Assembly: GCA_024698845.1 (NCBI GenBank)
Contig: JAILQR010000093.1
Coordinates: forward strand, 1 to 31,782
Direction of reading: 5' to 3'
Source of the DNA: Bacilli bacterium
GTDB lineage: Bacteria > Bacillota_I > Bacilli_A > RF39 > UBA660
Length of the DNA stretch: 31,782 bases
The translations under genes were made by a program, and so were the position numbers. Each line of letters opens with the position of its first letter. Position 1 is the stretch's first letter. Of this stretch, positions 2,946 through 22,144 are shown one piece after another. Below the pieces are notes generated by a model. That model saw nothing but the letters and a program-made list of their open reading frames with translations, made no database searches and was not told the DNA's origin.

Positions 2946-2975
2946 AATAAAAAAGGAAAGCAACTACTTGCTTCC
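2946..2975 (-). terminator. intrinsic terminator after the ydcC/ssdC 3' part
   Basis: GGAAGCAA-gtag-TTGCTTTCC hairpin followed by a T-tract, overlapping the stop codon. Confidence 0.65.
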
Positions 2976-3710
2976 ACTTACACTCTTCGCATCAGTTATA
3001 GATGATGCAACAGAAATCATCTCACTTTTTGTTAAAGTATTACTAGTTAGATAGTAGTCTATATTATCTTTGTTCCACTTAATATAATTGGAGCTAACAA
3101 CACCAATAGTATCATTTATAAATGCAATATCTCCATAAACAGGTGTTACTGAAAATTCATCAGATATTTTAGACGCTTCTTCTATTAAAGTAAAAGGTTT
3201 TTCACCAGTAAATGTTAAAATAACTCTTTTTGATAATTCGTCACCTATCTTTTCACTACTAGTTAAGTACGTATTGCCAGGTAAATATAAAGGATATATG
3301 ACATCATCTAATACATTTAGAGTTGTTTTTTCACAATTTGTTCCCTCACATACTTCCTCTTTATTAGAAATATATTCATCAATTTTAAAGTATTTATCAT
3401 CTATATTCTTATTTAAATTAATTTTACTAAACTTAACTATAATTTCTTTCTTGTTATCAACATTATAAACTTCAACTTTTTTTAGTTTGTTATTACTATC
3501 AAAATAAATCTTTTCATACTTTAATTCACTATTGTTGGGATAGTTAACCATTGATTTTATAACACTATATTTTCCTTCTGTATAATATTTTGATTTGGAA
3601 TCTACTCTTATATCATTAAGTAATGATGATAATAAATAACTTTGAGATGAATTATCCGGCCATGAACTTTCAAATTTAAAGCTCTTATTTAGAGATGGTG
3701 TTATTACATA
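2964..3710 (-). CDS. ydcC: ydcC/ssdC-like sporulation lipoprotein (LolA/MucB-RseB-like), 3' part of a split gene
   Basis: The frame stays open 53 codons upstream of the ORF-track Met (3551), up to the junction: YVITPSLNKSFKFESSWPDNSSQSYLL. This matches B. subtilis YdcC as I recall it (FVLTPSLNKSFRFQSDWPNNSSQVYL). The C-terminus GEKPFTLIEE...DYYLTS..LTKSEM also matches. Confidence 0.88.
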   Translation of the reverse strand, partial: YVITPSLNKSFKFESSWPDNSSQSYLLSSLLNDIRVDSKSKYYTEGKYSVIKSMVNYPNNSELKYEKIYFDSNNKLKKVEVYNVDNKKEIIVKFSKINLNKNIDDKYFKIDEYISNKEEVCEGTNCEKTTLNVLDDVIYPLYLPGNTYLTSSEKIGDELSKRVILTFTGEKPFTLIEEASKISDEFSVTPVYGDIAFINDTIGVVSSNYIKWNKDNIDYYLTSNTLTKSEMISVASSITDAKSVSGSK

Positions 3711-5257
3711 GGCACAGTAAAGTTATAAAAAATATTTATATTTCTGTCTTCATCGATTTCTATCCTGTTTATAAGCTTTAATATAAGTTTCCTATCAATT
3801 TTATTATTTTTTAAATCACTCACAAGTTCATCAAGTATAGATATATCATTTTTATCGTAACGCTTAAGTTCTTCTTCCAACTTTATGTTTTCAGTTTCTA
3901 TAAGTTTAATTTGCTCTTGGAACTTATCATATTGTCTACTAAATAAGTCATCACTGATTTTCTTATCAAGTTTATCATTATATATAATATCTATTTTATT
4001 GTTGATAATTAGTAGTTCATTATTATTATGTATTATTTTTTGGCGAAGTATATCGTTTTTACATTTTGCCATTTTACTATTTTCTAATCTTAATTTAAGC
4101 AAATCGAAATCGACATAATTTAGATGCTTTTTTATATCATCAAGTATTAAAAATTCTATATCCTCATATTTAACATTATGTGGGGAACATAATTTTTCGT
4201 TTTTTCTTTTTATATAATAACTACATGTTCCATAAATATAATTATTGGTACTTCCACAAACATTTCTAAAAGTAATTTTATGTCCACACTCACTGCAATA
4301 AATAAGTCCACGTAATAGCAAGTTATTAGTTATGTTATTAACACAGCTTATATGTTTATTTATTTCAAAAATACTCTTAGCCTGGTTAAAAACTTGTTCA
4401 CTTATAATATTAGGAACAACATTTTTTGATATAATCCACTCTTCTTTAGATGTTCTTATTCTCTTTTTAGATTTATAACTTACTTTTCTTTGTTTTCCTT
4501 GAACTAAATTACCAATATATATTTCATTCTTTAGAATCGAATTAACTGTTCTTTGCGACCACACACCAATATGATTACACTTTGATCTAATATTCATATT
4601 TTTATTGACACTTGGTGTTGGAATTTTTTCTAAAGTTAATATGTTGCATATTTTAGATATACTGTATCCTTCTATAAATAGATTAAAAATTCTTTTAACA
4701 ATTAAAGCTTCATCATTATTTATGATTAATTTATGATTATCAAGAGGATCTTTATTATACCCATAGGGAGCATAAGCTCCTATAAATAGTCCATTAACCT
4801 TTTTTATATATAGTGAACTTTTAATCTTGTTAGAGATATCTTTTACATACATATCATTAAATGCACTTTTAAAAACAAGCATGTCATTATTAGATGAATT
4901 AGAAAAAGTATCTATACCATCGTTTATAGCAACATATCTTATATTATGCTCTGGAAAATATTTTTCAACATAATATCCAAATTCAATATGATCACGTCCT
5001 AACCTAGATGTGTCTTTAGTTATTATCATATTTATCTTTTTAGATTCACAATCACGTATCATACGAGAAAAACTCAGCCTATTAAATGTTGTGCCAGATA
5101 CACCGTCATCAACATATTCATCTATGAAAGTAAGATTATTATCATTTATATATTTATGTATTAAATCACGTTGAGTTTTAATACTGCCACTTTCTCCTAA
5201 ATTTTCATCTTCTCTTGAAAGTCTTAAATAAATACCTACTTTATATTTATTATTCAT
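3704..5257 (-). CDS. large serine recombinase (TnpX/SpoIVCA-like architecture)
   Basis: Catalytic YLRLSRED and ITKDTSRLGRD, recombinase domain (APYGY), Zn-ribbon (LIYCSECG...C...C) and coiled coil. Confidence 0.96.
   Translation of the reverse strand: MNNKYKVGIYLRLSREDENLGESGSIKTQRDLIHKYINDNNLTFIDEYVDDGVSGTTFNRLSFSRMIRDCESKKINMIITKDTSRLGRDHIEFGYYVEKYFPEHNIRYVAINDGIDTFSNSSNNDMLVFKSAFNDMYVKDISNKIKSSLYIKKVNGLFIGAYAPYGYNKDPLDNHKLIINNDEALIVKRIFNLFIEGYSISKICNILTLEKIPTPSVNKNMNIRSKCNHIGVWSQRTVNSILKNEIYIGNLVQGKQRKVSYKSKKRIRTSKEEWIISKNVVPNIISEQVFNQAKSIFEINKHISCVNNITNNLLLRGLIYCSECGHKITFRNVCGSTNNYIYGTCSYYIKRKNEKLCSPHNVKYEDIEFLILDDIKKHLNYVDFDLLKLRLENSKMAKCKNDILRQKIIHNNNELLIINNKIDIIYNDKLDKKISDDLFSRQYDKFQEQIKLIETENIKLEEELKRYDKNDISILDELVSDLKNNKIDRKLILKLINRIEIDEDRNINIFYNFTVPM
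3705..3732. repeat. attR (core plus P' arm)
   Basis: Core tacata at 3705-3710. Arm TAGGCACAGtAAAGTTATaAAAAA at 3709-3732. Confidence 0.9.
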
Positions 5258-5360
5258 CTCTTATGTTACCTTCCAATATACTGTATAAATATTTATATAT
5301 TAATTCATTAATGTTAGTTCCATCAAAATTAATATTTACTACTTTATATATTTTCTTCAT
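5250..5360 (-). CDS. 36-aa ORF overlapping the recombinase start; candidate directionality factor or leader peptide
   Basis: Translated by hand as MKKIYKVVNINFDGTNINELIYKYLYSILEGNIRDE*. It overlaps the recombinase by 8 nt (ATGAATAA) and has no SD sequence. Confidence 0.5.
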   Translation of the reverse strand: MKKIYKVVNINFDGTNINELIYKYLYSILEGNIRDE

Positions 5361-5397
5361 AAAACAAATTATGAAACATTTATAGATTTATACATAT

Positions 5398-5432
5398 AAA
5401 AAATAGACAATTATTTCTAATTGTCTATTTTA
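5398..5432. terminator. intrinsic terminator after giant surface protein 1
   Basis: AAATAGACAATT-atttct-AATTGTCTATTT perfect hairpin with A/T tracts on both sides. Confidence 0.85.
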
Positions 5433-5443
5433 ATTTAAGAATA

Positions 5444-8400
5444 TTATTTTCTTCTTTTTCTCATTATTACAACACCAGTAACAGAAAGTGTTGCAACAGC
5501 AAAGATACCAACATATAGCATAATGTCATCAAGTGTAATTGGATTATTTATTTTTGTATCTTCCTTAGTAGGTTCTACAATAGCTAAATCTTCTATATTT
5601 TTATAACCAAATGTTACTTCGATAACATCACTATTAACAGTTCCTTCAATATTATCTGGAAGTTCAACTAGTTCATAACCACTTGGAGTTACAGGTTTAT
5701 CAACCTTATATGGAGTAAACCATTTTTGAATAGATATAATAGGGTCTTTAATGTCTTTTCCTGTATCTATATCTACAAGTTTAGTTATAACTTTAGCATC
5801 CTTAACAACATATTCATAAAGGACTATTATTTCATCTTTATCTACTGTGCCAGTTGCATTAGATGGCATTCCTTTTAATTTATATCCATTTGGATCTTTT
5901 TCTAAAGGACTTGTTGTATATGTATCCCCATATTTTTTAGGAGTAACAATATCTTCAGTAAATTTTTCACCACTGTCTGGATCAATGTATCTAGCAATTA
6001 CATTACTGTCTTTTCTTACATAATAGTAAGTAACAGTAATACTGTCTGTTTCTACAGGTCCAGTAGCATTATCTGGAGTAGATACTAAGCTATAGTTAGT
6101 TGGAATTGGATCAAGAGCTACAGTAGTATAAGTGCTTCCATAAACAATTTCTTGAATATCATCATCAGCAACTTTTTGATTTGTATCTTGATCAATATAT
6201 CTTGTAGTTACTATTCCCTTTTGTGCTCTAAAGTAATATGTAATCGTAGTCATTTCATCAATAACTTCACCAGTTACTTCTCCATCAGTTCTTGATAGGA
6301 CATACGGAGCAGGAACACTATTTAAAGCAGGTGCTGTATAAGTTTCACCGTAATCATAATATGCTTGATCCTCATCTGCTATAGGATCACCTGTTTCTTC
6401 GTCTATATATTTTGTAATAACTAGGCCTTTATTTAATTTAGCATAGTAATAAATAATTTCTGTAAGTGGTTTTTCTAAGATACCACTTTCATCACCAACA
6501 TGACCAACAAGCTCGTATAAAGCAATTTGAATTGGGTTAGTAATGTAGTTATAACCTATTTCATGAACTTCACGAAGTTCATCAGCAAGGTTTGTATCAG
6601 TATTTTCTAATTTATAATTTACAACAAGTTCACCAGTTGGATTTTCATAGTTATAAATTACTTCTGTATTATCTTGTGCATAGAATCCTCGATAATTATC
6701 TGGGATTACATAATCTCCATTAGAATCTTTAACAAGATCATATGAAGTACTAATCTTAGGTTCTGTAATATATTCATCACCTATTTGACCAGCCATAATT
6801 TCATCACTATCAATTTTAATAGTTGTATTTTTTAAATAGTGATGAACTATTACTTTAGATGACCCCAAAGCAAATGTTACAACAATATTTTTGTTTTCTG
6901 TAACGTTAGTTAGCTTATCAAGTGTTACAATACCATCTTCGTCCGCATTATAACCTACAGATTTACCGTTGACTTTAACATCTTTAACATAGTAACCTAC
7001 ATCAGGTGTAATAGTTATGGTATTAGTGGTATCATCACCATACTTAACTGTTTCAACTTCGTAAGGATCATTACCTTCATATAAAGTATCGTTACCATTT
7101 GTAACTTTATAAGATCCACCAGCATTACTTTCTATATTTATATTAAACTTTTTACGTTTATTAAATAATTCTAGTGATACAGCAGCTGGAGTTTCTGGAA
7201 GAACTTCATCTGATAATTCGAATGTTGCAAATAATTGGCTTGTATCAAAATCAGTAGCTTGAGTTGCATATGGATATTCATCAACTACAGATTGAATGGT
7301 TTTACTACTAGATGTTAATGGAATAGATATTCTATTAGTATTTGTATCATAGTAGAAACCAGTGTAACTTGAAGCATTACCACTTACTGGATATTTATAT
7401 TGTTTAATCCATTCTACAGAAGAATCATTATTTACTTTATAGATTAATATATAATTACCAGAATTAATATGTACTTTTTCTCCACTTCGAAGTATTACAT
7501 CATGGTCTTCTAATGATCCGTTTAGGATGAATATATATCCATCATCAAGTTTATATGTATATTCTGGTCTTCCACCATAATTAACTCTTTTGTAGTCATT
7601 TGATGTATCATATTCTTCAAGTTTCTGAGCACTATATCTTGAAACTTCGATAATTTTAGATAAAGTACCATTTGCATCAAAGTGTGCAAGAATAATTTGG
7701 TTCTTCTTACTTGGTTCATCAGGAGTCTGTACTTTTAATGCATCTATATCAATTACATTAGATGTTGATGTTCCAAACATTCCATCAGTATATCTTTCAG
7801 CTGAAGTAATATAGTCAAATGAACCATCATCGTAGAAATTAAATATTGATTCATTTGATACATTGCTACCGTAAATATATGGAGTAGAATGATATGTCTT
7901 ATTAAATATTACAGGTTTTGCCCATAAAGCATTACCACTAGCATCAAATTTTCCAACTACCATATATTGGCCTCCACCAATATATAAAGATATTTCAACT
8001 TCAATTGTATTATCATCTAAATATCTTATTTCTGGATATGGTTCATATTGATCATAATAATATTTATTAGTAAATAAACTACTTGCGGCAGTTTCACCTA
8101 ATTGTTCAGTGTAGAATTCTAATAATTTATCATACATCTTATCCATTACTGGGAATGCAGATATAGAGTTTCCCTCTTTATCATATTTAACAACATATAC
8201 TTCACCATGAGTAGTTTCATTTGTTACAAACTCACCATTATCAAGTTCTATACCATATATGCTATAAGAATTTCTTCCACTAAGATATGCAAGTTTAACA
8301 AATCCGTTACTGTTTGAATCAAAAGCACTGTATTTATACGCATTTGGATAAGACATTGTATATGTATACTGATTATGATAATTTTCATCATCATCTTTTA

Positions 8401-11400
8401 TTAAATAATAATTACCATATGTACTGTTAGGATTTTTCGGTGCCGATCCATAGTAATAATATAAAGTTGTACTTCCTGGATTTGTTAGATCAACTTCATT
8501 ACCTTCTTTATCTAAGATAAGTACATATGTCTTACCAACTGCAATATAGTAATAATCTTCTTCCTCAGTAGCATGTAGATATGTTTGAGGAAAACATGAT
8601 GTACAAGTATTAAGTGTTTGCTCTATTATCTCTCCAGGATGAGATTCATTAGTATATATGTATTTGGTATCATATGGAGTCATATCATATTCTTTATTCC
8701 ACTCAACATGAGCAGATGAATCATACTTAACTAGAACAATTTTCTTATCTGTGTTATTAAGTGTAGCAGCTAAAACTCCATTATCGGCAGTATTGATAAG
8801 TCTAAATGGTTCATCAGATGGTAACATATCAGCACTTACAAACTTAACTCCTGCTTGAACAGCTGGTTTAGATTCACCAATACTGAAATATACAGTTTCA
8901 TCAGATATATCATACTTTTCATCAGCAGCTTGAATTTCTTTTAATACATATGAACCAGATTTTAAGTTAAGTGATAACTCACCATTTTCATCAGTTTTTA
9001 CAACATAATATTCTGTATCATCAATAACAATCTTCTCACCAATTGTTTTTCCATAAATATCTGTTGCTGCCACTAAATCTGTTGTTCCAGGTTTAACATA
9101 GAATATCGCATAGTATGTATTTGGAAGTCTATTTCCATTTTCTTCATCACTTTTTGTAACCTTGAATAATGGATAGTCTTCAACAGCTACTTTGAATTTG
9201 TTCTCTTCATATGCAGAATCTTCAAAATTTCCGTTTACTGTATAAGTTATATCACTTGCAGTATTAATTTTCGCATCTAGTTTAAATTCCCTTAATTGAG
9301 AATCAATACTATATCCTGCTGGTGCATATACTTCTTTAAGTGTATATTTATTAATTGTTGGATAGTTTCCACTTAATCCAGGAATTAAATATGTATTTCC
9401 TGAATAAGAAATTCTAAGTTCAACAGTTGCTTTACCTGTTGAATCAGTAGTTATATATTTACCGCCTTCAGGAAGTCCTGGACCACTAATTTTAAATTGT
9501 GCACCAGGTAACAAATCTCCTGTTGTAGAATCTACTTTTGAAACTTCAAATAAAGCTTTATCAATAACTTTAGTAGGTATTTCAAGAGCTAGTACAGGAT
9601 TATCATTAGAATCTAAAGCATAGTTTCTAACTGATTGTGTAATATTTTCATTTTTTGATTCAACTGCAACATTTGTCTTTTGAGCAACAGCAGCAAGTTC
9701 TTTATCATATGTAGCTACACCATTAACATAACGGTTAACACCTATAGTTGTAGACTCACTAGGATTATAATAAGCATAACTTCCTAGATTAGAACTTCTA
9801 TGATATTGAAGTTTTACATTGTATAAATGTCCAGCTTCAAATGGAACATACTCTACGTTATTATTTTTGTTAATTGCAACATTAACCGCTCCACTCATAG
9901 ATATACTTTGAGCTGAAGTTGTATTTGAACCAGTATAATTTGCTTTTGATATTTCTCTAGATGGAGTAATATCAGTTAAATCATCAATACCGCTTGTAAC
10001 ATATAATTTATATGTAGAAGTTCCATTATCATTCCAAATGTCTTTTAGTGTTGATGATACACCTATACGATATTCATCAGTAAAATTAGATAAATCTATT
10101 GTTGCATTACATTCAAAGTCTCCGCCAGTTTGATTGTTAGCTGTTCTAGAATTCATTGAAATACTTGAATATGCCGATGCATTAATTTGAGAATTACATG
10201 TGCCAATTGCCATAGTTGGATCTTGTTTAGTTGTAACACTAGGTTCATGAGTAGAATTACTACGAACTAATCTAACTTCAAATTCAGAAATTGGAGAGTA
10301 ATCACCCATTTGTACTTGTGAAATTGTATAATATTCACCTAGAACCATGTTGTTTAAATAAGCATGTCCATTTTCGTCAGTCCTAATATTTGTGCCATTT
10401 TCATGATTCTTACCAGTTACTTTAAATATTGCATTTGGTAAATCTTCATTATTAGCTACATTAAAATTATGTAGGTCAAGTGTATGTAGGATTTCTTGAT
10501 CTAAATCAATACTTACAGTCGCATCATTATTTAGAGTAATGTTTCTATAATTTCCAGTATTTGATAATACTAAAACATCATTTTCTCCATTAGCAATACC
10601 AAAAGTTTTAGATTCTTCATCTACTTGATATCCACTAATTGCTGAATATTGTTTTAAAGTATAAGTTTTATCAACATATAATCCTTCAACCAATGCATGT
10701 CCATTTGTATCAACATTTATAGATCTTGTATTTCCGTCACTATCAGTTAAGAAATAAACACCATTAGGCACTTTATTATTTGAGAATGATTTATATACAT
10801 TTAAATCCACACTATATTTTCTAGCAAGTCTTAAACCAATTTTTTGACCTGATACGTTTGATGAATGAGTACCAGCATCAGTTATATAGTCAAAATATGC
10901 ACCATGTGTATAGTATGAAACTTTATTTAAATTAGCCGTTGTTACTGGAAGTTTAATAGGATAACTAAAATCTAGTTCTTCCCTTACATCTAACTCAATC
11001 TCATCATCTACAATAATGTAGTAAGACTTAATATTTTGATAGTCAGTCGGTGTTGTTATCCAACCGTTAGACAAATCGCTTATGTCGCTTGTTGGATTTT
11101 CTTGCTCAGAATATAGAACTTGTACTTTACCTTCAAGTTCTGAAGGAATAACTATAGGACCAGCCATAGTTGAGTCATATTCTGTTCCAAGTGTACCCTC
11201 ACCAATTTGATAAGTATTTCCAACAAACCCAACTTTACCAATTATAGATATGTTTTTAACCGTAGTATCTGAGTTATTTAAAACAAATATATTCATAGTT
11301 GCATCACTTGATCCGCGAAGTGGATTAATATCTGCAACTAGTGGTGAAATAGTTTCTTCTCCACTACTTTCATAATCAGTTACAAGTGAACCTGTAATAA

Positions 11401-13573
11401 CTTCATTAGGAGCAGTGAATCTAGCTGATGTAGTAGCTTTTGCTACAGTATCGTTTGTTAAACCATTACCATTAATATCATAAATATCAGCAGTTTCATC
11501 TCTATAAAGAGTTGCACCTTCACTATAACCATATAAAGTAAATGATAAGGCTTGAGTCGGCATCTTAGGATTAATTACAGCATCTAATGATACAGTAATA
11601 GCATTTCCATAATTATTATCATTATCAAACATTATTTTAATAAAGTTATTATCCCCTATTTTTACAACTTCAGTATTAATAATATTATATATTGTTGATG
11701 TTGCTTCAACATTATTAGCATCTAATATTTCTTCTGGTAACTTAACAAGTAAAGTACCTTTAGTCCAATTTCTCGTATTAATACCAGTACTATTTGGAGT
11801 AATAGTCATTGTCATTGGGATAGATGAATCTGAAATTTCTCTTTCATAACTTGACTTATCTAATTCTATTTTTACATATGTACTCTTAACATCAAATACA
11901 GCATTTCTACTTCTAGGTAGCGCAGTTGATTCATAATCTCCATTACCTAAGTAATCTTGATATACTTCAAACTTAGTTTGAATTGATTGTGCAGCAGCCA
12001 TTGTACTTTCAGGTACATTATCAATTAATTTCTTAACATTAAATTGTTTTACAAACGAAACATATAAATAGATTGCATGACCAGCATCAAGTTCATTAGT
12101 AACAAGCTTTACTCGTTTAACTCCTTCTGGTAATTCTAAATCCTTATTTTTATTTTCGCTATTAACAACAAATAGTAATTCATCTGTTTCAGCATTTCTT
12201 ACTTCAACAATACCTTGTTTAAAGAATGATACACCCATATCTGATATTCTAATAGATTTTGTTGTTATGTAATCATCATAACCATTTCCTCTGTCAGTAT
12301 ATACAGCTTTACCACCAGCTCTTGAATCTATCCAAGATCTAATAGTCCAGTTTTGATTAAATGTATAATTATCTGGATCTTCACTAGAATTATAAGCTTC
12401 CATTATAGGTGATTTATCTACATAGTAACTTTCTAATTCTGTAACCATTTGACCAACTGTTATAACAGATTCATCTAGTAAACCTGGAGTAACAGGAACT
12501 AATCTCGTAATTTCATGAGAGAATAAAGCATCTTTCTTATTACTTTCAACTAAAGTATATTCTTTATCAGCAATACCAACATACCAAGCTTTAGTATTAA
12601 GAGTTACTGTTTCTTTTTTAACATTATCATTTACAGGATAAGTAACAGTTACTGTCCATTTAGTAGTTCTTGCTCCGTTTTCTTTAGTATTATACGCTGT
12701 ATTAGTTATAACTCCATCTTCAATAGTAGCTCTTCTATAAGCTGTGAATTTTTGAGTTTCTGGATCATAATCAACTACAGCATTACCTCCTAAAGCACTA
12801 ACTCTAACACTAGTTGGATGTTCACCCATTAAATCAGAAACAGTACCTTCTAAATGTGATTCATATATAGGCATTGAATCATAAGTATCTTCAACATATA
12901 CATTATATGTAACTGTGAAGTTATATTCAGATGTATTATTACCAAGTTTTACATTAGTATTTATATATTCAGAATATGAATCAACTAAGTATGTAACATC
13001 TTTTTGTATATGTTTTTCCTCACCAGTAATATTATCAACTACAGTACCAGTAAATATAACTTTATTATTACCGATATATTTATTTAAATCTTTATCGATT
13101 CTAGGAGATACATTTAAATAGAAAAATGAAGAAATACCATTACCAATAGTATTATTTAATGTAATAGTTTCAAAGTTACTACTATATTCAGACTTAGGCA
13201 TAATAGAACTTCTTGGTACAGTACCAGAAACAACTACATTTGAATTATCAAATTCTATCTTTGCATCTTTAAGTGTTACATCACCTAAAATTTTAAGTTC
13301 AAAGTATAATTTGTCACTACCTCTATTAATAATTCTAGATCCACGATATCCTTCAGCTTCTCCATCACCATCAGTATCTTTTAAGAAAAAAGCATCGAAT
13401 GTAACGTAATCTGTTCCATCTATTTTTTCATCATCATCTTCAACCCTGATGTAATCTTTGTAATCCTTTGCATATTGTGAAAATGTTATTTTTTTACCAC
13501 CTATAAAGCAGATAGCAAACAAAAAAACACTTAATATTCCTATTAAAGTCTTAATTTTATTATTTCTATTCAT
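5444..13573 (-). CDS. giant cell-wall-anchored adhesin-like protein 1 (2709 aa)
   Basis: Signal peptide, ~4 SpaA/Cna-B-like domains (KVDSTTGDLLPGAQFKI...YTLKEVYAPAGY), K(Y/F)DxxGxxxW propeller-like repeats, an InlB-B-repeat-like domain, 6 MucBP-like repeats, and NPITLD + TM + RKRRK anchor. Confidence 0.88.
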   Translation of the reverse strand: MNRNNKIKTLIGILSVFLFAICFIGGKKITFSQYAKDYKDYIRVEDDDEKIDGTDYVTFDAFFLKDTDGDGEAEGYRGSRIINRGSDKLYFELKILGDVTLKDAKIEFDNSNVVVSGTVPRSSIMPKSEYSSNFETITLNNTIGNGISSFFYLNVSPRIDKDLNKYIGNNKVIFTGTVVDNITGEEKHIQKDVTYLVDSYSEYINTNVKLGNNTSEYNFTVTYNVYVEDTYDSMPIYESHLEGTVSDLMGEHPTSVRVSALGGNAVVDYDPETQKFTAYRRATIEDGVITNTAYNTKENGARTTKWTVTVTYPVNDNVKKETVTLNTKAWYVGIADKEYTLVESNKKDALFSHEITRLVPVTPGLLDESVITVGQMVTELESYYVDKSPIMEAYNSSEDPDNYTFNQNWTIRSWIDSRAGGKAVYTDRGNGYDDYITTKSIRISDMGVSFFKQGIVEVRNAETDELLFVVNSENKNKDLELPEGVKRVKLVTNELDAGHAIYLYVSFVKQFNVKKLIDNVPESTMAAAQSIQTKFEVYQDYLGNGDYESTALPRSRNAVFDVKSTYVKIELDKSSYEREISDSSIPMTMTITPNSTGINTRNWTKGTLLVKLPEEILDANNVEATSTIYNIINTEVVKIGDNNFIKIMFDNDNNYGNAITVSLDAVINPKMPTQALSFTLYGYSEGATLYRDETADIYDINGNGLTNDTVAKATTSARFTAPNEVITGSLVTDYESSGEETISPLVADINPLRGSSDATMNIFVLNNSDTTVKNISIIGKVGFVGNTYQIGEGTLGTEYDSTMAGPIVIPSELEGKVQVLYSEQENPTSDISDLSNGWITTPTDYQNIKSYYIIVDDEIELDVREELDFSYPIKLPVTTANLNKVSYYTHGAYFDYITDAGTHSSNVSGQKIGLRLARKYSVDLNVYKSFSNNKVPNGVYFLTDSDGNTRSINVDTNGHALVEGLYVDKTYTLKQYSAISGYQVDEESKTFGIANGENDVLVLSNTGNYRNITLNNDATVSIDLDQEILHTLDLHNFNVANNEDLPNAIFKVTGKNHENGTNIRTDENGHAYLNNMVLGEYYTISQVQMGDYSPISEFEVRLVRSNSTHEPSVTTKQDPTMAIGTCNSQINASAYSSISMNSRTANNQTGGDFECNATIDLSNFTDEYRIGVSSTLKDIWNDNGTSTYKLYVTSGIDDLTDITPSREISKANYTGSNTTSAQSISMSGAVNVAINKNNNVEYVPFEAGHLYNVKLQYHRSSNLGSYAYYNPSESTTIGVNRYVNGVATYDKELAAVAQKTNVAVESKNENITQSVRNYALDSNDNPVLALEIPTKVIDKALFEVSKVDSTTGDLLPGAQFKISGPGLPEGGKYITTDSTGKATVELRISYSGNTYLIPGLSGNYPTINKYTLKEVYAPAGYSIDSQLREFKLDAKINTASDITYTVNGNFEDSAYEENKFKVAVEDYPLFKVTKSDEENGNRLPNTYYAIFYVKPGTTDLVAATDIYGKTIGEKIVIDDTEYYVVKTDENGELSLNLKSGSYVLKEIQAADEKYDISDETVYFSIGESKPAVQAGVKFVSADMLPSDEPFRLINTADNGVLAATLNNTDKKIVLVKYDSSAHVEWNKEYDMTPYDTKYIYTNESHPGEIIEQTLNTCTSCFPQTYLHATEEEDYYYIAVGKTYVLILDKEGNEVDLTNPGSTTLYYYYGSAPKNPNSTYGNYYLIKDDDENYHNQYTYTMSYPNAYKYSAFDSNSNGFVKLAYLSGRNSYSIYGIELDNGEFVTNETTHGEVYVVKYDKEGNSISAFPVMDKMYDKLLEFYTEQLGETAASSLFTNKYYYDQYEPYPEIRYLDDNTIEVEISLYIGGGQYMVVGKFDASGNALWAKPVIFNKTYHSTPYIYGSNVSNESIFNFYDDGSFDYITSAERYTDGMFGTSTSNVIDIDALKVQTPDEPSKKNQIILAHFDANGTLSKIIEVSRYSAQKLEEYDTSNDYKRVNYGGRPEYTYKLDDGYIFILNGSLEDHDVILRSGEKVHINSGNYILIYKVNNDSSVEWIKQYKYPVSGNASSYTGFYYDTNTNRISIPLTSSSKTIQSVVDEYPYATQATDFDTSQLFATFELSDEVLPETPAAVSLELFNKRKKFNINIESNAGGSYKVTNGNDTLYEGNDPYEVETVKYGDDTTNTITITPDVGYYVKDVKVNGKSVGYNADEDGIVTLDKLTNVTENKNIVVTFALGSSKVIVHHYLKNTTIKIDSDEIMAGQIGDEYITEPKISTSYDLVKDSNGDYVIPDNYRGFYAQDNTEVIYNYENPTGELVVNYKLENTDTNLADELREVHEIGYNYITNPIQIALYELVGHVGDESGILEKPLTEIIYYYAKLNKGLVITKYIDEETGDPIADEDQAYYDYGETYTAPALNSVPAPYVLSRTDGEVTGEVIDEMTTITYYFRAQKGIVTTRYIDQDTNQKVADDDIQEIVYGSTYTTVALDPIPTNYSLVSTPDNATGPVETDSITVTYYYVRKDSNVIARYIDPDSGEKFTEDIVTPKKYGDTYTTSPLEKDPNGYKLKGMPSNATGTVDKDEIIVLYEYVVKDAKVITKLVDIDTGKDIKDPIISIQKWFTPYKVDKPVTPSGYELVELPDNIEGTVNSDVIEVTFGYKNIEDLAIVEPTKEDTKINNPITLDDIMLYVGIFAVATLSVTGVVIMRKRRK

Positions 13574-13597
13574 TTTTCCTATTCTCCCTCTATTATA

Positions 13598-13626
13598 ATT
13601 TTAACTTTTTTGTATAATTGTGTCAA
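13598..13626 (-). promoter_or_regulatory. sigma-A promoter of adhesin 1
   Basis: TTGACA-17-TAAAAT followed by a GAGGGAG RBS. Confidence 0.75.
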
Positions 13627-13698
13627 TGTAATTACATTAATTTTTATTACTTATTGAAATATCTTTAATATTCTGAAATGATTAAAAATTATATATAT

Positions 13699-13729
13699 AA
13701 AAAAAGTGAACAATTAAGTTCACTTTTTT
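13699..13729. terminator. intrinsic terminator after giant surface protein 2
   Basis: AAAAAAGTGAAC-aattaa-GTTCACTTTTTT hairpin. Confidence 0.85.
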
Positions 13730-13734
13730 ATTTT

Positions 13735-16700
13735 TTATTTTCTTCTTTTACGAAGTACTACAACACTAGCAATAGAAAGTGTTGCAACAGCAAAGATACC
13801 AACATATAACATGATGTCATCTAAAGTAATAGGATTACTTATTTCATCATTTTTAGGAGGAACTATAGGAACTTCTGGTGTAATACTTGGTGTTGGTTCT
13901 TCCTCAGGAGTACCCTCTTTAGCATAAACATAAATAATTGTTGTGCTTTCTGCTTCGACCAATACAGATTTATTAGTAGGTTCCATATATAGTTTATAGC
14001 CTTCAGGAATTTCAGCTAATGGTGTAGATGTATATGTTTCTCCATAGTATAGTTCTTGTTGAACATAATCTGCTATATCTAAATATGAATCTTTATCAAC
14101 ATATTTAACAACAACAGTTCCTTTTGGCTTTCTATATCTATATTCTACAACTATATTATCTCTATCAACTGGTCCAGTAGCATTATCTGGAGTTTCAGTT
14201 AATACATAATATGCAGGTAAATTTGTTGGTTCACTTGTTGTATATGTTGAACCATATGAATATTCATCAACTTTAGGATCAACTACATTGTTTTCATTAT
14301 CTATATCAATATATTTAGTAGTAACTATTCCTTTTTTAATTCTATAGAAATATGTTACTTCTGTAATATCTTCTGTAGCTATGCCATAAGTATTTCCTTG
14401 AGATGATACTAACACATAATTTGTTGGAGTCGGATCAAGAGGTGTTGTTGAATATTCTTCATTATAATCATAGTAATCATATGTAGGATCTGAAAGTGGT
14501 TCATTACTTTCAATATCAACATAATTTGTTACAACTAACGCTTTATTACCTCTAGCATAGTAATAAGTAATTTCAGTTAGTGGTACATTTAATATACCAT
14601 CTTCAATTCCATCAACAGATACAAGTTCATATAAAGCAATGAATATTGGCTCAGTAACATAAGAAGAACCGCGAGGTTTAGTTTCAGTTTTACTTGGAGA
14701 AAGAGGAGTATCAGTGTTTTCTAAATAGTAATTTACTCTTAATTGTGCTTGATCAATATAGTAGTAAGTTACCTCAATATTGCTTTGACCGAATAATCCT
14801 TTGTAATTACTTGGAATTACATATTCTCCGTTATCATCTTTAACTAAATCGTATTGACCTGTAATTTTTGGTTCAGTTATATAATCTGATCCAATTTGAC
14901 CTGCTAAGATATCATCTCCAGCAATTCTTGTAGTAGTTCCATCTAGATAGTGATGAACTATTACTTTAGAATCACCTAGTTTGAATGTTACATAAATATG
15001 TTTATTTTCAGTAACATTTTCAATTGGATCTAAAATCGCAACTCCATTTTCATCAACTGAGAAATCTATCTTATTATCATTGATAGTTATAGATGAAATA
15101 TAATATCCAGCATTAGGAGTTACTTTAACTTCATTTACAGTAGTATCTCCATATTTAACATTTTCTACAGTACCAGGATCAGTACCATCATATAAGATGT
15201 TATTTCCACTTGATATTGTGAATGTACCAAATCCATTAGATTCTGCAGTTACTTCAAATACTTTTCTTGTATTAAATAATTCTAGAGCTACTTGACTAGG
15301 AGTTTCAGGTATAACTTCATCATCAATTTTAAACTCAGCAATCATCATAGTAGAATTTCTGTCTGTATTTAAAACATTATACGGAAGTTCTTCACCTATT
15401 TTTCTAATTGTTGGAGTACTAGCATCTAGTAAAATTCCAAATTTATCATTAGATAAATTAGATTCATATATAAATCCTGTTTGATTAGAATAAGGATATG
15501 CATATTGTTTTATCCATTCAACAGATGAATCACTGTTTACTTTATATATGATAACTGAAGGAGTATTTTCTAATACGAACTTTTCACCACTTTTTAATAT
15601 TACTTCTCTATCTAGATCATTATAGAAGTTATCATTTTCTAAAGCAGCTATATATCCACCATCTTCAGTCTTACTAAAGAAGTATAAATCTTTAAAATGC
15701 TTTACATTATAGAAGTCAAGAGTTGTATCAAATTTTTCAAGTTTGTTTGTGTTAGAATCTTGTAATTCAACAACATTTACTAGTTTACCAGATGCATTAT
15801 GTTCAAGTACGCTTAATGCTGAATTTGCTTCACCATCATGTCCTGGTTCTTCAGGGAATGTAAATTGTTGATCAGCAGTATTAAATAATGGATTAGGTGA
15901 TTGAGAATCAGTATATTTAACTTTTTGATACGTTGCAAGAGATGCAGAGCCATCATCATATACTCTAGCATAGTTTGTACCATTTCTTTGAGTTCCACTT
16001 TCATCAGAATATCCATTAACACCCATTGGAGTAACAAATTCTAAATTACCATCTTTATCAAACTTAGCATGGAAGTACATAGAATTATTTCTTGATGAAT
16101 GTCCACCAGTATATACGTTAATTAACATAGCTACGCTACCGTCATCAAGATAATTAATTGCATCCCTATGTAGTGAACTACCATTTAAACCAAAGTTACT
16201 TGGAAGTTCAACATTATTAGCAGCAGCATAATCAATAATACCTTGTTCAAGCTTATCTAAAATATAATATCCATCAACTAATTTACCGGTATTATCAAAT
16301 TTATATACTATGTAATCACTAGTTCTTCCAACAGGAACAACAGTTCCATCACTTCTATAAATTCTATAGTATTGCCCGTCTAGGAATGATAACCCAGCGA
16401 CACCTTTAGCACCGACATCAAATACAGGATAACTCATGATGTAGTTAACATATAGTGAACCGCTAAAACTATAGTAGTTTTCAGTATCCCCTTCTTTTAC
16501 ATAATATGGGTAATTTTGTGAAATATTTTCATATGAATTCCATGCTGTAGGATCAGTACTATATGGAGTAAATCCGGTAGAAGCATAATGATATGTCTTT
16601 ATACTATTTGGATAAGAAGCTGCAGTATCATAAATTGTATTACCAGTTTCTTTTTCAACTAATACTACTTGCATTGGACTTATAGCGAAATAGTATCCTT

Positions 16701-19700
16701 TATCGTTTTCTAACATATCCACGCTGCTATCCGAAGTATAACTATTAAAACTTGGTTCAGTATAATAAACTCTTTCAGGATCATCATGATATGTGTACAT
16801 ATAATTTTCATAATATCCACATGGAATATCTTTTGTCCATTCTACATTGAAATTGCTATCATACTTAGTTACACTTAGCACGTTATCTACAAGATTTGAA
16901 GTAAGGTACCCACCATCATTAGTTTGAAGCATTCTCATACCACTATTATATCGTGTAGCTCCATCAAATACTTCACTAGCTTTAATAAATGTTATACCTT
17001 TAGCTTGGTAATTCTTTCCTTCACCAATTGAGAAATATGTTTCTTGATCAGAAATATCATATTTATCATCAGCAGCTTGAATTTCTTTTAAAACATATCT
17101 ACCAGCTTTAAGAGCTAATGTAATTTCACCATTTTCATTTGTTTTTACAATATAATAATCTTCTCCGTCAATATTAATTTTATCACCAATATAGTTATTA
17201 TTAATATCTGTAGCTGGAGTTTTATTTCCATCATCATCAATTGAATATATTACATAGTAAGTATTAGGAAGAACATTTTGAGTTTCTGCATCCTTTTTAG
17301 TTACTTTAAATAGTGGATAATCATCCATTACAGCGTTATATACACCATTTTCGTAGCTTGTTTCTTTGAAAGTATTTCCAGTTGAATATTTAATTGTTGA
17401 ACTAGAAACATCACCACTATTATCGATTTCTTTATCAATAGTAAATTTTATTTCTTTAGGATCGATTGTATATCCCTTAGGTGCTGATACTTCTTGTACA
17501 GTATAAATATTAGTAAGCGGATAATCATCATCAAGTCCTAAATTCCAATAATTACCTGAGAATGATTGGAATAATTCGATTGAAGCATTACCACTTTCGT
17601 CAGTAGTTACATATCTAGGTGATGCAAATCCTGGACCAGATATTTTAAACTGAGCACCAGCAAGCGGATTATTATTTGTAGCATCAACTTTCTTAATATT
17701 TAAAACAGATTTTTGAATTTGAATATTTGGTATATCTAAATCTAAAATTGGTCTTTCAATATCAGAAACATCGTAATTTTCAAGTGATTGAATAACTTTA
17801 TTATTATCATCATTAGCTAAATTACTAACAGCCGTAGTTGCTACTAATTCTTTTTTTCCATTAACAGGATAAATTCTAATATATGTATTAAAGTATGGTC
17901 TAGAAGTTGTTCCACTTCTATGATATTGAAGGAATACATTATATTGTCTTCCACCAACAATATCTCGCATTATTTCTCCTTCTTGTCCACCACCCATAGC
18001 TTGAGTTAAAGAAGCCTTTTGAGAAATAGTTGTTGAATATGTAGGAGCTTTATCCTTATTTAATTCGATAGCATAAGGCGCAGCCATTGGATTCATATTA
18101 CTTGAAATAGCCCAAGTTAATGATGAATTAGCGGATGAGTCCCCCCACGCATCATAAAGTGAAGAATCAAAATCAACTCTATATGCATTTTCGTAATTTA
18201 ATAAGTCTAGTACATAATTACAATTTTGTTGCATTTCACTAGAACCAGAAGTTCTAGTTGTATTTAAATAAAATTCACTATGATCGCTATACCATGTATA
18301 TTCAGAAAAGTTTACTGTTGGACTACAGTAATTAGTTATTTTCGGTAATTGTCTAGATGTAAGTCTTAAGTTATGAGTACTAGCATCTCTTGATACCTTA
18401 AATTCAAAATCTTTAACTTCTGGATATCCTTCATTTAAAACTACTTCAGCTTTATAAGTTTTATCTACAACTAAATTATCTAAATAAGCATGTCCATTTG
18501 CATCAGTTCTTACATTTGTACCATTTTCATGGTTAGGTCCTGTAATTTTATAAATAGCATTTGGAATACCTTCATTGGTAGAACTATTAAAATGATTTAA
18601 ATCAAGTTTATATAAAACTTCTTGATCTACTCTTACTCTAACTAAGTCACGTGTTGCTCCATAATCCCAATCACTAAAACCATAATTTGAAAAATATAGT
18701 ACATCCTCATTTTCATTACTCATCTCAAATGATTTGTCAGTAGTTATTGAATAACCAGGATATGCACTTACTTGAGATAAAGTATAGTATGTATCAACAT
18801 ATAATGAATTTACTCTAGCATATCCATTTGAATCAAATACAACTGATCTTTGATTTCCATCCTCATCAGAAAGAATAAATACACCACCAGGAACAATTAC
18901 ATCATCTGAATATATTTTCATTAAATCAAATTCAGCATCATATAATCTTGATAATCTAACTCCAAGTTTTCCACCTGAAACTTCAGAGGAATATAACCCA
19001 GCTTCAGTTATATAATCAAAGTATGCACCATGAGTAAAGTAAGAATATTTATTTAAGTTTTCTGTAGTTTCAGGAGTTGTTATTGGATAACTAAAGTCAA
19101 CTTCTTGACCAACTTCTAGTTCATAGTCTCCATCGAAGATAATCATATAAGATTTAACATTTTGATAATCTGAAGGAGATGTTGTCCAACCATTAGATAA
19201 ATCGGATTGATCACTAGTTGGATCAGCCTTTTCACTATATAAAACAGTTACATCACCTTGTAGTGCAGCAGGAACAACTATAGGTCCTGACATATATGTA
19301 TCAAATTCAGTTCCAAGATCACCTTCACCAATTTGATATGTATTTCCAACATAAGCAACTTTACCAATAATACTTAAATTTTTAACATTTGATTCAGAGT
19401 TATTTAATACATATAACTCTATATCTGCTTGGTTTGTTCCACGAAGTGGATTTAAATTTGCGATAAGTGGTGAAATTGTTTCACTACCTTTATCATCATA
19501 ATTTTTAATTATAGTACCTGTTATAACTTCATTAGGAGCAATGAATCTGACTGCTCTAGTATCATAAGCAACTTTTTCATTTAAAACTCCATCTATATCA
19601 ACGTCATATATATCAGTATTTGTATCTCTATATTGAGTTAATTCTAAGTTCTTAGCATATAAATGGAAAGTACCAGTAAATGTTGATGACTTAGGATCAA

Positions 19701-21696
19701 TAATCGCATTCATGTTAACATTTATTTTTGCTGGAACATTACCTTCAACATATACTCTTATAAATTTCTTTCCACTAATTTCTAATTCTTCAAAGAATGA
19801 AGCATTAGGGACATCTAAGTCTTGAATATCAATAATTTCGTTTGGAACTTCTATTAAGAAATATCCACCTTTACTCCACGAAGAATATCCTGTTTGACCA
19901 CCATTTTTTTCAATATATAGTGTCATTGGTATACTTGATTCATGTGAGTTTCTTTCATAGTTAGATTTATCAAATTCTAAATCTGCAAATGATTCTTCAA
20001 CAGTAAATACTGCTGATGATGTTCTAGGTATTGGAAGTGACCCAACTATTACATTTGGATCGCTATAAGCTTGTTGAGCATCAAATCCACCTTGAATAGT
20101 TCCATCTCTTTCAATAGAATCTTTGCTAAAGTTTGTAGCAATCTTATCAAGTTCAAATTCTCTTGTTAAGTAAACAGTCATTTGAACACTAGTTCCAGGA
20201 TCTAGTTCATTAGTTTCAACAATAATTCTATGAATGTCTTCATCAAAATTTAATGTTTTACAATTATTAGAACCATTAATGGCAAACAGCGTTTTTCCTG
20301 TTTCATAATTTTTTATTACTGCTTCTCCGCCATTTCTACTATACAGATCACCAAAACATACTCTAACAGTTTTATATTTAGCATAGTTTGTATATTCACC
20401 TAATCCGGTATCAGTATATACAGCTTTACCACCTAAATCTTTATCAATAACAGAACTAATCATATATCTTTGGTCAAATTTATATGTCCATGAAGGAATA
20501 TTAGAAACATTATCGTACTTAGCAATTATTCCTGATTTACTTACAAACCAGTTATTGACAGCATCAGACCATTCACCAATTCTAGATTCTGAATCATCTA
20601 AGAATCCATCCTCTGCAGGAACAAGTCCAGTAAACATATGTCTTCCATTAATAGTAACATGCGTACTATCAACAGTTTCTAATTCTTTATTTTTGAATCC
20701 TGTATGCCATGCCTCAGCATGAATAGTAGCTTCTTTTTGATAAATACTAGAATCATAAGGATATTCAACTCTTACATACCATACTGTATGTCTTCTATCG
20801 TATTTCTTAGTATCATACGCAGTCTTAGTAATAACTAAATCTTCTAGTTCAGCAGTCTTAACAGCTTCAAATGTTTGATTAGAAGCATTGTAATTAGTTA
20901 CTACATTTGATCCATTAGCCGAAACAGAAACACTCTTTGGATGCATTCCTTCTAAATCAGAAATACTACCAGATAAATATGATTTATAAAGTGGAGTTTG
21001 GTTATAAGATTCATAAGTATCAATTGTATATGTAACAATAAATGAACCTAGTACGCCGTCATCATCTATTGATTGAATATTTGTTTTAATATAGTTAGAA
21101 TATGAATCAACTACATAACTTATTTCTTTTCTAATATTAGTAGACTCACCAGTTATGTTATCAACAACAGTACCTGTTAAAATAACCTTATTTGTACCTA
21201 TAAATTTAGTTAAATCCTTTTCAACATCTGGTGATACATTTAAATAAAATAATGAAGAAATACCATTACCAGCATTTTGAAGAGTTATATCATGATAATC
21301 TTCATTATATACTGTAGTTGCAAAAATACTACTCTTAGGTAATGTACCTGATACTTTAACATTCGAATTATCAAATGAAATAGTTGCATTAGTTAAAGTA
21401 ACATCACCAAGGACTTTTAATTCAAAATATAATTTATCACTATACTTATTTTGAATAGTAGCACCACGATAACCTTCTGCATTACCATCATCATCTTCAT
21501 CACGCAAGAAGAATGCATCAAATGTTACGTAATTAGTACCACTAATACTTTCGTCTCCATCTTCTACTTTTACATAGTCCTTGTAGTTATATGGACTATT
21601 TTGAAAAGATATTTTTTTGCCACCTATAAAGCAAACCGCAAATAAAAAAACAGCAAGAATTCCCCATAAATTTTTGTTTCTAATTAACTTCTTCAT
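13735..21696 (-). CDS. giant cell-wall-anchored adhesin-like protein 2 (2653 aa), paralog of protein 1
   Basis: Same domain order as protein 1, with 5 MucBP-like repeats, a Pro-rich linker and NPITLD + TM + RKRRK anchor. Confidence 0.88.
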   Translation of the reverse strand: MKKLIRNKNLWGILAVFLFAVCFIGGKKISFQNSPYNYKDYVKVEDGDESISGTNYVTFDAFFLRDEDDDGNAEGYRGATIQNKYSDKLYFELKVLGDVTLTNATISFDNSNVKVSGTLPKSSIFATTVYNEDYHDITLQNAGNGISSLFYLNVSPDVEKDLTKFIGTNKVILTGTVVDNITGESTNIRKEISYVVDSYSNYIKTNIQSIDDDGVLGSFIVTYTIDTYESYNQTPLYKSYLSGSISDLEGMHPKSVSVSANGSNVVTNYNASNQTFEAVKTAELEDLVITKTAYDTKKYDRRHTVWYVRVEYPYDSSIYQKEATIHAEAWHTGFKNKELETVDSTHVTINGRHMFTGLVPAEDGFLDDSESRIGEWSDAVNNWFVSKSGIIAKYDNVSNIPSWTYKFDQRYMISSVIDKDLGGKAVYTDTGLGEYTNYAKYKTVRVCFGDLYSRNGGEAVIKNYETGKTLFAINGSNNCKTLNFDEDIHRIIVETNELDPGTSVQMTVYLTREFELDKIATNFSKDSIERDGTIQGGFDAQQAYSDPNVIVGSLPIPRTSSAVFTVEESFADLEFDKSNYERNSHESSIPMTLYIEKNGGQTGYSSWSKGGYFLIEVPNEIIDIQDLDVPNASFFEELEISGKKFIRVYVEGNVPAKINVNMNAIIDPKSSTFTGTFHLYAKNLELTQYRDTNTDIYDVDIDGVLNEKVAYDTRAVRFIAPNEVITGTIIKNYDDKGSETISPLIANLNPLRGTNQADIELYVLNNSESNVKNLSIIGKVAYVGNTYQIGEGDLGTEFDTYMSGPIVVPAALQGDVTVLYSEKADPTSDQSDLSNGWTTSPSDYQNVKSYMIIFDGDYELEVGQEVDFSYPITTPETTENLNKYSYFTHGAYFDYITEAGLYSSEVSGGKLGVRLSRLYDAEFDLMKIYSDDVIVPGGVFILSDEDGNQRSVVFDSNGYARVNSLYVDTYYTLSQVSAYPGYSITTDKSFEMSNENEDVLYFSNYGFSDWDYGATRDLVRVRVDQEVLYKLDLNHFNSSTNEGIPNAIYKITGPNHENGTNVRTDANGHAYLDNLVVDKTYKAEVVLNEGYPEVKDFEFKVSRDASTHNLRLTSRQLPKITNYCSPTVNFSEYTWYSDHSEFYLNTTRTSGSSEMQQNCNYVLDLLNYENAYRVDFDSSLYDAWGDSSANSSLTWAISSNMNPMAAPYAIELNKDKAPTYSTTISQKASLTQAMGGGQEGEIMRDIVGGRQYNVFLQYHRSGTTSRPYFNTYIRIYPVNGKKELVATTAVSNLANDDNNKVIQSLENYDVSDIERPILDLDIPNIQIQKSVLNIKKVDATNNNPLAGAQFKISGPGFASPRYVTTDESGNASIELFQSFSGNYWNLGLDDDYPLTNIYTVQEVSAPKGYTIDPKEIKFTIDKEIDNSGDVSSSTIKYSTGNTFKETSYENGVYNAVMDDYPLFKVTKKDAETQNVLPNTYYVIYSIDDDGNKTPATDINNNYIGDKINIDGEDYYIVKTNENGEITLALKAGRYVLKEIQAADDKYDISDQETYFSIGEGKNYQAKGITFIKASEVFDGATRYNSGMRMLQTNDGGYLTSNLVDNVLSVTKYDSNFNVEWTKDIPCGYYENYMYTYHDDPERVYYTEPSFNSYTSDSSVDMLENDKGYYFAISPMQVVLVEKETGNTIYDTAASYPNSIKTYHYASTGFTPYSTDPTAWNSYENISQNYPYYVKEGDTENYYSFSGSLYVNYIMSYPVFDVGAKGVAGLSFLDGQYYRIYRSDGTVVPVGRTSDYIVYKFDNTGKLVDGYYILDKLEQGIIDYAAANNVELPSNFGLNGSSLHRDAINYLDDGSVAMLINVYTGGHSSRNNSMYFHAKFDKDGNLEFVTPMGVNGYSDESGTQRNGTNYARVYDDGSASLATYQKVKYTDSQSPNPLFNTADQQFTFPEEPGHDGEANSALSVLEHNASGKLVNVVELQDSNTNKLEKFDTTLDFYNVKHFKDLYFFSKTEDGGYIAALENDNFYNDLDREVILKSGEKFVLENTPSVIIYKVNSDSSVEWIKQYAYPYSNQTGFIYESNLSNDKFGILLDASTPTIRKIGEELPYNVLNTDRNSTMMIAEFKIDDEVIPETPSQVALELFNTRKVFEVTAESNGFGTFTISSGNNILYDGTDPGTVENVKYGDTTVNEVKVTPNAGYYISSITINDNKIDFSVDENGVAILDPIENVTENKHIYVTFKLGDSKVIVHHYLDGTTTRIAGDDILAGQIGSDYITEPKITGQYDLVKDDNGEYVIPSNYKGLFGQSNIEVTYYYIDQAQLRVNYYLENTDTPLSPSKTETKPRGSSYVTEPIFIALYELVSVDGIEDGILNVPLTEITYYYARGNKALVVTNYVDIESNEPLSDPTYDYYDYNEEYSTTPLDPTPTNYVLVSSQGNTYGIATEDITEVTYFYRIKKGIVTTKYIDIDNENNVVDPKVDEYSYGSTYTTSEPTNLPAYYVLTETPDNATGPVDRDNIVVEYRYRKPKGTVVVKYVDKDSYLDIADYVQQELYYGETYTSTPLAEIPEGYKLYMEPTNKSVLVEAESTTIIYVYAKEGTPEEEPTPSITPEVPIVPPKNDEISNPITLDDIMLYVGIFAVATLSIASVVVLRKRRK

Positions 21697-21718
21697 ATTC
21701 TAGACTCCCTCTAGTATA

Positions 21719-21747
21719 ATTTTAACTTTTGTGTCTATTTTTGTCAA
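21719..21747 (-). promoter_or_regulatory. sigma-A promoter of adhesin 2
   Basis: TTGACA-17-TAAAAT followed by a GAGGGAG RBS. Confidence 0.75.
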
Positions 21748-21844
21748 CGAAATAACCATTATTTATAAAGGCTCTTGAAATATTTTTAGAAAATTGAAAT
21801 GATAATAGATAAGGCATAAAAAATGTGGATAACCCCACATAATT

Positions 21845-21874
21845 TTTTTGATAACTTTTCTGTGCCTATACATA
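21845..21874. repeat. attL (P arm plus core)
   Basis: Minus strand reads TATGTA TAGGCACAGaAAAGTTATcAAAAA, 22/24 identical to the attR arm in inverted orientation. Confidence 0.9.
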
Positions 21875-22144
21875 GACACCGTCTTCATTTTTTAAAATTA
21901 TTTGTCTATGTTTATTATCTAAATTACTCAGTTCAACTCTATAAAATTTATCTTTTTTATAAAGGACGTTCAAATCATAATTATATTCTTCTTCGTCTCC
22001 ATAAATTTTCATATTGGCTAAAAGTTCATAACTATTAGAGTTATTAACATCATCACTAAAAGATTTAGTTACACTACTTATATCACTTTTAGTGCACCCA
22101 GTAATAAAAATAACAGTTATTAACAATACTATTATCTTTTTCAT
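21866..22144 (-). CDS. ydcC: ydcC/ssdC-like sporulation lipoprotein, 5' part of a split gene
   Basis: Lipobox ITGC (Cys17). YRVELSN...RQIILKNEDGVYV matches B. subtilis YdcC as recalled (YRVYLEN...QVILRNENGVFV). The frame stops immediately after the att core. Confidence 0.88.
   Translation of the reverse strand: MKKIIVLLITVIFITGCTKSDISSVTKSFSDDVNNSNSYELLANMKIYGDEEEYNYDLNVLYKKDKFYRVELSNLDNKHRQIILKNEDGVYV

Follow-up and report, generated by a model that had tools for sequence, protein, structure and literature searches.

Elements that intervene in sporulation genes have mostly been described as prophage relics. The skin elements encode SpoIVCA and Skr in Bacillus subtilis (PMC6957869) and CD1231 and CD1234 in C. 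difficile (PMC5025042), and gin of Bacillus cereus ATCC 10987, a non-phage element located in gerE, encodes GirC together with the 42-aa recombination directionality factor (RDF) GirX (PMC5595907). A review of IMEs knows of no RDF in those with serine integrases and leaves sporulation unmentioned, and recombinases of the Tn4451 type (TnpX/TndX) excise without an RDF (PMC5704250). The gene ssdC (ydcC) encodes in B. subtilis a 338-aa protein that is controlled by sigmaE in the mother cell; ssdC mutants of this species still sporulate, and their spores are rounder (PMC7769602). No ssdC/ydcC-interrupting element was found in the literature searched, so that ssdC represents an unreported target, which is used by the element family described here from mobile IME to stripped unit.

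The window, i.e. the whole analysed stretch of 31,782 nucleotides, is contig C99 of a 745-kb assembly (G000) with 27.5% GC and a completeness of 83%. The host encodes spo0A, spoIVA and sigK, and the genes spoIIGA-sigE are not in the 83% complete assembly and are present in all four congeners. SpoIIID had no match in four of the five genomes of the genus. The capacity of RF39 bacteria to sporulate is a prediction from gene content (PMC10868615).

Structure of the interrupting element

The element comprises 18,164 bp (positions 3707-21870) and interrupts ssdC/ydcC at codon 92. When it is removed, a 92-aa ORF reads on into a further 246 aa, giving a single frame of 338 aa, which is the length of B. 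subtilis SsdC (PMC7769602). The 5' half of the gene (21866..22144) is located on the minus strand, which also carries every other gene, promoter, att site and hairpin placed below on ssdC or the element; it starts with a lipoprotein-type signal, ends with a stop directly after the att core and joins in frame to the 3' half (2964..3704). The latter comprises codons 93-338 without stops or frameshifts and is 57-61% identical to the intact genes of four congeners. The equivalent gene (5' half) of a second strain, L100, matches the Pfam family PF27667 (YdcC).

The longest inverted repeat of the window (I1) pairs attR (3693..3736) with attL (21841..21884). Both contain the 7-bp core CTATGTA (3711-3705 and 21875-21869) with the crossover dinucleotide GT (3707-3706 and 21871-21870), and the rebuilt attP is symmetric about this GT at 24 of 27 positions. 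A GT centre is common to five other elements in the att comparison. A terminator-like hairpin inside attL (21823..21840; z -2.3), which is retained in strain L100, would shield the cargo from ssdC transcription. A 71-aa ORF on the plus strand (21823-22038) spans attL; this and other short antisense ORFs were taken as spurious, given their absence from sister elements.

The locus thus combines a split mother-cell sporulation gene (YdcC match, 338-aa rejoined gene), whose sigmaE control is taken from B. subtilis data only, with a large serine recombinase and a joining of attL and attR that restores the frame. We infer excision at sporulation, and the membership of the element in the skin/gin class is unproven. 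None of its four ORFs is a gene for a relaxase, rep, repressor or phage structural protein, and the integrase is the only long one beside two giant genes. Structural, lysis and repressor genes of a prophage are absent, the domains of giant gene B are exclusively those of surface proteins, and a PHROGs search with three ORFs matched the integrase alone. The element has no relaxase ORF of its own, and none was found in G000; no oriT-like match was found between the element and its mob-carrying sister elements. The window copy is not an IME, because it is without relaxase or rep, and it is not a CIME, because its integrase is retained.

The recombination unit

The large serine integrase (3704..5257; 517 aa) contains Resolvase, Recombinase and Zn ribbon domains and ends in a stop codon that spans the attR crossover. 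Its start is overlapped by a 36-aa ORF (5250..5360), a candidate RDF. An HMM built from 20 family members ranks this ORF first among the 471 ORFs of the window (E 5.7e-6), and an ORF of 36-59 aa is located upstream of nearly every family integrase. The small ORF matched no Pfam or PHROGs family, and atlas searches with it returned nothing usable. Its frame is kept in the second strain with six replacement changes and one silent change, which are few sites and mostly conservative, and there is no sign of purifying selection.

A CATA-type box is located just upstream of the small ORF in 24 of 31 distinct relatives versus 7% of random windows, a count in which kin are not independent, and it is accompanied in these relatives by an AT-rich ATA box at sigmaE-like spacing. 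We take both boxes to be sigmaE-like on the basis of the sigmaE consensus. In the window neither the small ORF (score -4.0, below zero) nor the integrase has an upstream match to the family promoter matrix, and the small ORF is without a ribosome-binding site of the relatives' type. The lost promoter match, the lost ribosome-binding site and the 6:1 ratio of changes would count against scheduled excision.

The predicted complex of the integrase and the 36-aa ORF scored 0.59 versus 0.02 for the best control, with a contact agreement of at least 71% and a partner pLDDT of at least 63; 58 of the 80 solved pairs reach the mark applied to this score, as do 2 of the 110 mismatched ones, and at or below 0.60 these comprise only seven solved pairs and both mismatches. 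The prediction lends weak support to a complex of the two proteins, and its score may echo integrase-RDF structures that the predictor had memorised.

The integrase sits on a long end branch (0.71), and its best full-length relative is 59% identical. On the excised circle its stop would be lost and the next one would yield a protein of 552 aa; the attL hairpin (21823-21840) precedes that stop. The stop loss could thus result in a non-stop mRNA and tmRNA tagging of the integrase. As a family-wide mechanism it was rejected, as it was seen in the window alone among 46 integrases.

Two giant surface-protein genes

Genes A and B account for 16,092 of the 18,164 bp (89%). Giant surface protein B (13735..21696; 2653 aa) comprises an N-terminal TM segment, a SpaA-like Ig stalk, a beta-propeller (residues 1560-2140), five MucBP repeats and an NPxT-like sorting signal with TM. 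Its paralog A (5444..13573; 2709 aa) has six MucBP repeats, and the two are 41.7% identical end to end. Common to both are an N-terminal hydrophobic segment, SpaA and MucBP domains and, at the C-terminus, NPITL followed by TM and basic tail; sortases are encoded by the host. From domain types only, we infer a role in adhesion. The N-terminal region of about 900 aa has no Pfam or PDB sequence match. For residues 1560-2140 of B, an alignment-based fold (pLDDT 77) predicts a beta-propeller with insertions, whose matches (Z 15-18, up to 17.6; rmsd ~3.4; ~285 aligned residues; 3-15% identity) are all generic propellers; atlas searches gave no more than weak propeller leads for this middle domain of B.

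Both genes are preceded by a predicted sigmaA-type promoter, TTGACA-17-TAAAAT, with an 11/12 consensus match (21719..21747 for B, 13598..13626 for A). These are the two top-scoring of 127 sites in the region, the exact pattern occurs only six times in the 745-kb assembly, and the upstream regions are 73% identical. Terminator hairpins follow B (13700..13729; z -6.4) and A (5400..5431; z -5.1), the latter located between the cargo and the recombination unit. An earlier note on this DNA had described an ssdC/ydcC-interrupting element without relaxase, rep, repressor or phage genes, whose cargo consists only of two giant paralogous genes, each with its own sigmaA promoter and terminator. Our results bear out this description, although its gene inventory missed the 36-aa ORF (5250-5360).

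Sister elements at the same codon

The comparison of cargo at the ydcC site across genomes, as proposed in the earlier note, documents that the cargo differs among them. A further 21 complete elements, between 2.8 and 10.9 kb in length, occupy the same ssdC codon and share the GT centre; the loci were cut at 10-kb flanks, so that large sister elements are visible only in part. In a 400-genome family sample, attR replaces the ssdC 5' half in 11 of the about 149 matches listed, and integrase searches added many further elements. About ten sister elements harbor a Mob_Pre (MobV) relaxase and many have HTH_36 or AAA_25 genes, and the element family therefore includes IMEs. Their cargo comprises Bro-N, RhuM/Fic, DNA methylase, YfhO, acyl-CoA ligase and a Cas9 fragment; none of the 21 has a giant-protein match, and no phage gene was recognised in the sister cargo examined. 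The Cas9-like fragment (744 aa) is located in L067:3478-5712, and restriction-type cargo, a DNA methylase plus an AAA protein, in L081:1759-9312. The stretch GTGTGTTATA is present in the attR arms of L066, L127, L128 and others and absent from that of the window; we assume that it resembles the pMV158-type MobV nick region. Judged by its gene content, the ssdC-targeting family is mobilizable in origin, not phage. The earlier note had set this element apart from gene-interrupting elements of the prophage type, a contrast that is undone by the Mob_Pre genes of the sister elements and by the published non-phage gin (PMC5595907).

Some hosts with only 39-45% identity between their SsdC proteins carry integrases that are 98-100% identical, thereby indicating recent horizontal spread across genera, and host and integrase relationships are barely correlated (Spearman 0.09). 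Split and intact ssdC genes are interleaved on the host tree, with 23 changes among 85 rows of a sample enriched for split genes. The hosts of sister elements include Ca. Faecimonas, Aphodocola and Onthousia, which we take to be members of the order RF39. All four congeners of the window strain exhibit the same gene order with an intact ssdC and no integrase, hence an empty site in 4/4. A pilin-like N-methylation protein ORF (28660-29028) lies between secG and rnr, and an ORF of the same size is found there in the congeners. One congener (G002 C3:297800-300000; L204) carries another serine recombinase and a Mob_Pre gene at a different site. More distant integrases of the same clade as that of the window (L179, L186, L167, L177, L165, L181, L199, L184, L189) adjoin sigK-like, cotZ, collagen-like, M14 peptidase, GH94 and peroxiredoxin genes or pieces of them, several of which are sporulation genes.

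Origin of the giant genes

Full-length homologs of the giant proteins with 34-38% identity are present at no fewer than five unrelated ordinary loci, among them sites before typA, after an amidase gene, after rplQ and before enolase, and no integrase was found in the fetched flanks. One homolog belongs to congener G003, whose ssdC is intact; this strain is outside the 400-genome sample, in which the adhesin search scored few candidates per genome. The corresponding insertion sites are empty in the genome of the window (C37:2666-2705, C37:10195-10265 and C28 after rplQ). In L101, L102/L205, L105 and L110, which belong to close relatives, the giant gene occupies varied intergenic spots, often directly after a terminator; it has a promoter and a terminator of its own, and no mobility gene accompanies it. 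Several homologs share the promoter region or motif of A and B.

The giant genes are thus, as far as their genomic distribution tells, a patchy chromosomal family of related bacteria that was acquired by the element as passengers of one species. Each of A and B has its best match in the other, which would fit a capture with subsequent tandem duplication. The earlier note had tied the giant genes to the element and named their occurrence elsewhere as refuting evidence; the homologs at ordinary integrase-free loci, including that of G003, dissolve this tie. The adhesin cargo is less special than first thought, and more is gained from the context of the element family.

Conservation between strains

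The assembly of strain L100 harbors the same element at 97% identity with every frame open and both att arms conserved. Contigs of four runs from four studies cover all 30 bins of the element and two of them bridge attL; one run is probably the source sample, and one of the four studies may have yielded the second assembly. Runs with the element are mostly from bovine and sheep gut, and no RNA run is among those listed. The element is accordingly no one-off insertion, an outcome that the earlier note had named as refuting its reading, and the variation in cargo between strains that this note had envisaged was not seen within the species, in which all strains seen have the same two giant genes. 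No attB (empty-site) or attP (circle) joint was listed for the four runs, which were searched as assembled contigs, where rare forms are lost.

Between the two strains, dN/dS amounts to 0.18 for the integrase (Fisher p 8e-10), 0.18 for gene A and 0.21 for gene B, the latter two also significant. The element is hence kept in several strains of the species under purifying selection. The MucBP end of gene A (5444-6400, codons 2401-2700) has a dS of 0.26, about three times that of the rest, which suggests a recombined patch. The divergence ratio of ssdC is 1.22 versus 0.84-1.12 for six flanking genes, and SsdC keeps 125 of 144 congener-invariant columns versus 90-99% in controls; the gene is unbroken and slightly accelerated, and the acceleration counts, as does the missing SpoIIID match, against our preferred explanation.

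Evolutionary scenario and alternatives

We regard it as reasonably probable that the element is a domesticated skin/gin-like recombination unit from an ssdC-targeting family of serine-integrase IMEs, which is cut out of the mother-cell chromosome and passed on in the spore. It would descend from IMEs of RF39-type gut Bacilli; its mob and rep genes are lost. In growing cells, where ssdC is presumably not needed, the element would be integrated and the giant proteins made from their own predicted sigmaA promoters. The integrase and the 36-aa factor would act in the mother cell, joining attL and attR at GT and restoring ssdC, while the spore lineage would retain the element. The giant genes would be a captured and tandemly duplicated copy from the patchy chromosomal family, their benefit keeping the element and the need for SsdC keeping the recombinase. 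A more far-reaching version, which we hold to be rather unlikely, states that the still-mobile, relaxase-bearing family hides in a mother-cell gene by means of a sporulation-induced RDF, that the window copy is a domesticated minimal unit with which captured surface genes of the host travel in the spore, and that the loss of the integrase stop (non-stop mRNA, tmRNA tagging) makes excision one-way. If true, it would provide a traceable route from IME to skin and a new directionality switch.

Excision may alternatively be unrelated to sporulation, with ssdC knocked out or restored by stochastic RDF-independent events, as for TnpX/TndX, and the island kept for its surface proteins only. The lost family promoter and ribosome-binding site, the neutral-looking changes of the small ORF and the mild acceleration of SsdC fit this explanation, as do the dispensability of ssdC for B. 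subtilis spores (PMC7769602) and the RDF-independence of Tn4451-type recombinases (PMC5704250). We nevertheless consider it unlikely, as the integrase is clearly under purifying selection, the att arms are conserved in both strains and the ssdC halves are without stop or frameshift despite the long isolated branch of the integrase. Preservation of the integrase could also result from continued mobility, i.e. a circle that spreads within the species in trans by a helper relaxase, transduction or transformation. Sister elements do move between genera, and the silent divergence of the element (0.07-0.11) exceeds that of its flanks (0.04-0.06) in the two strains; however, the flank estimates comprise few sites, the non-coding parts of the element match no mob-carrying element and no close integrase relative occurs in other hosts (best full-length 59%), which makes this quite improbable. 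Least credible, and in our view most improbable, is a prophage-derived, vertically locked cassette for swappable vegetative surface proteins: the window cargo consists of surface proteins only and, between strains, gene A has diverged about threefold more at its MucBP end than elsewhere (dS 0.26), but phage genes were neither found in this element nor recognised among the sister cargo genes examined, the cargo of the other elements is unrelated and never includes the giant proteins, and the same two genes are present in all strains seen. The homologs at ordinary loci outside the element largely refute this adhesin cassette. The vertical lock-in that the earlier note proposed for the case that spore formation needs excision was too strong: such a need places the recombinase under selection but neither favours the cargo nor disfavours a clean loss, B. 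subtilis forms spores even when ssdC is mutated (PMC7769602), and the site is empty in 4/4 congeners.

Under the preferred reading of a domesticated unit, the family in small-genome uncultured gut Bacilli provides a natural series for the origin of sporulation-gene-intervening elements and indirect evidence that the hosts still run the mother-cell programme. It also offers many sets of integrase, att sites and putative RDF.

Comparison with known systems

The giant proteins resemble cell-wall-anchored MucBP/SpaA proteins in their signal/TM, Ig-like stalk, MucBP repeats and sorting signal with TM and basic tail, and they differ by NPITL instead of LPxTG, a large inserted beta-propeller and the unmatched N-terminal region of ~900 aa. 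The sister elements correspond to the Tn4451 family and the streptococcal rumA IMEs (PMC5704250), as they likewise disrupt one particular gene and combine a large serine recombinase with Mob_Pre and HTH_36 or AAA_25, whereas the window copy has no relaxase or rep and thereby departs from IMEs with MobV relaxases.

With the 36-aa ORF as putative rdf, the organization attL-rdf-int-attR within a mother-cell gene is that of skin, the rdf of B. subtilis skin overlaps the integrase start just as the 36-aa ORF does, and integrases related to that of the window adjoin sigK-like genes in Clostridia. In contrast to skin, the element is not prophage-like, its target ssdC shapes spores and is not essential, and its sister elements are still horizontally moving. 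From gin it differs by another target gene, one recombinase instead of three, four genes instead of 31, giant surface proteins as cargo and an excision that is putative. It agrees with gin in being a non-phage element with variable cargo that splits a mother-cell gene and encodes a large serine recombinase with a very small companion ORF that lacks annotation, and the position and size of the 36-aa ORF match those of both Skr and GirX (PMC6957869, PMC5595907).
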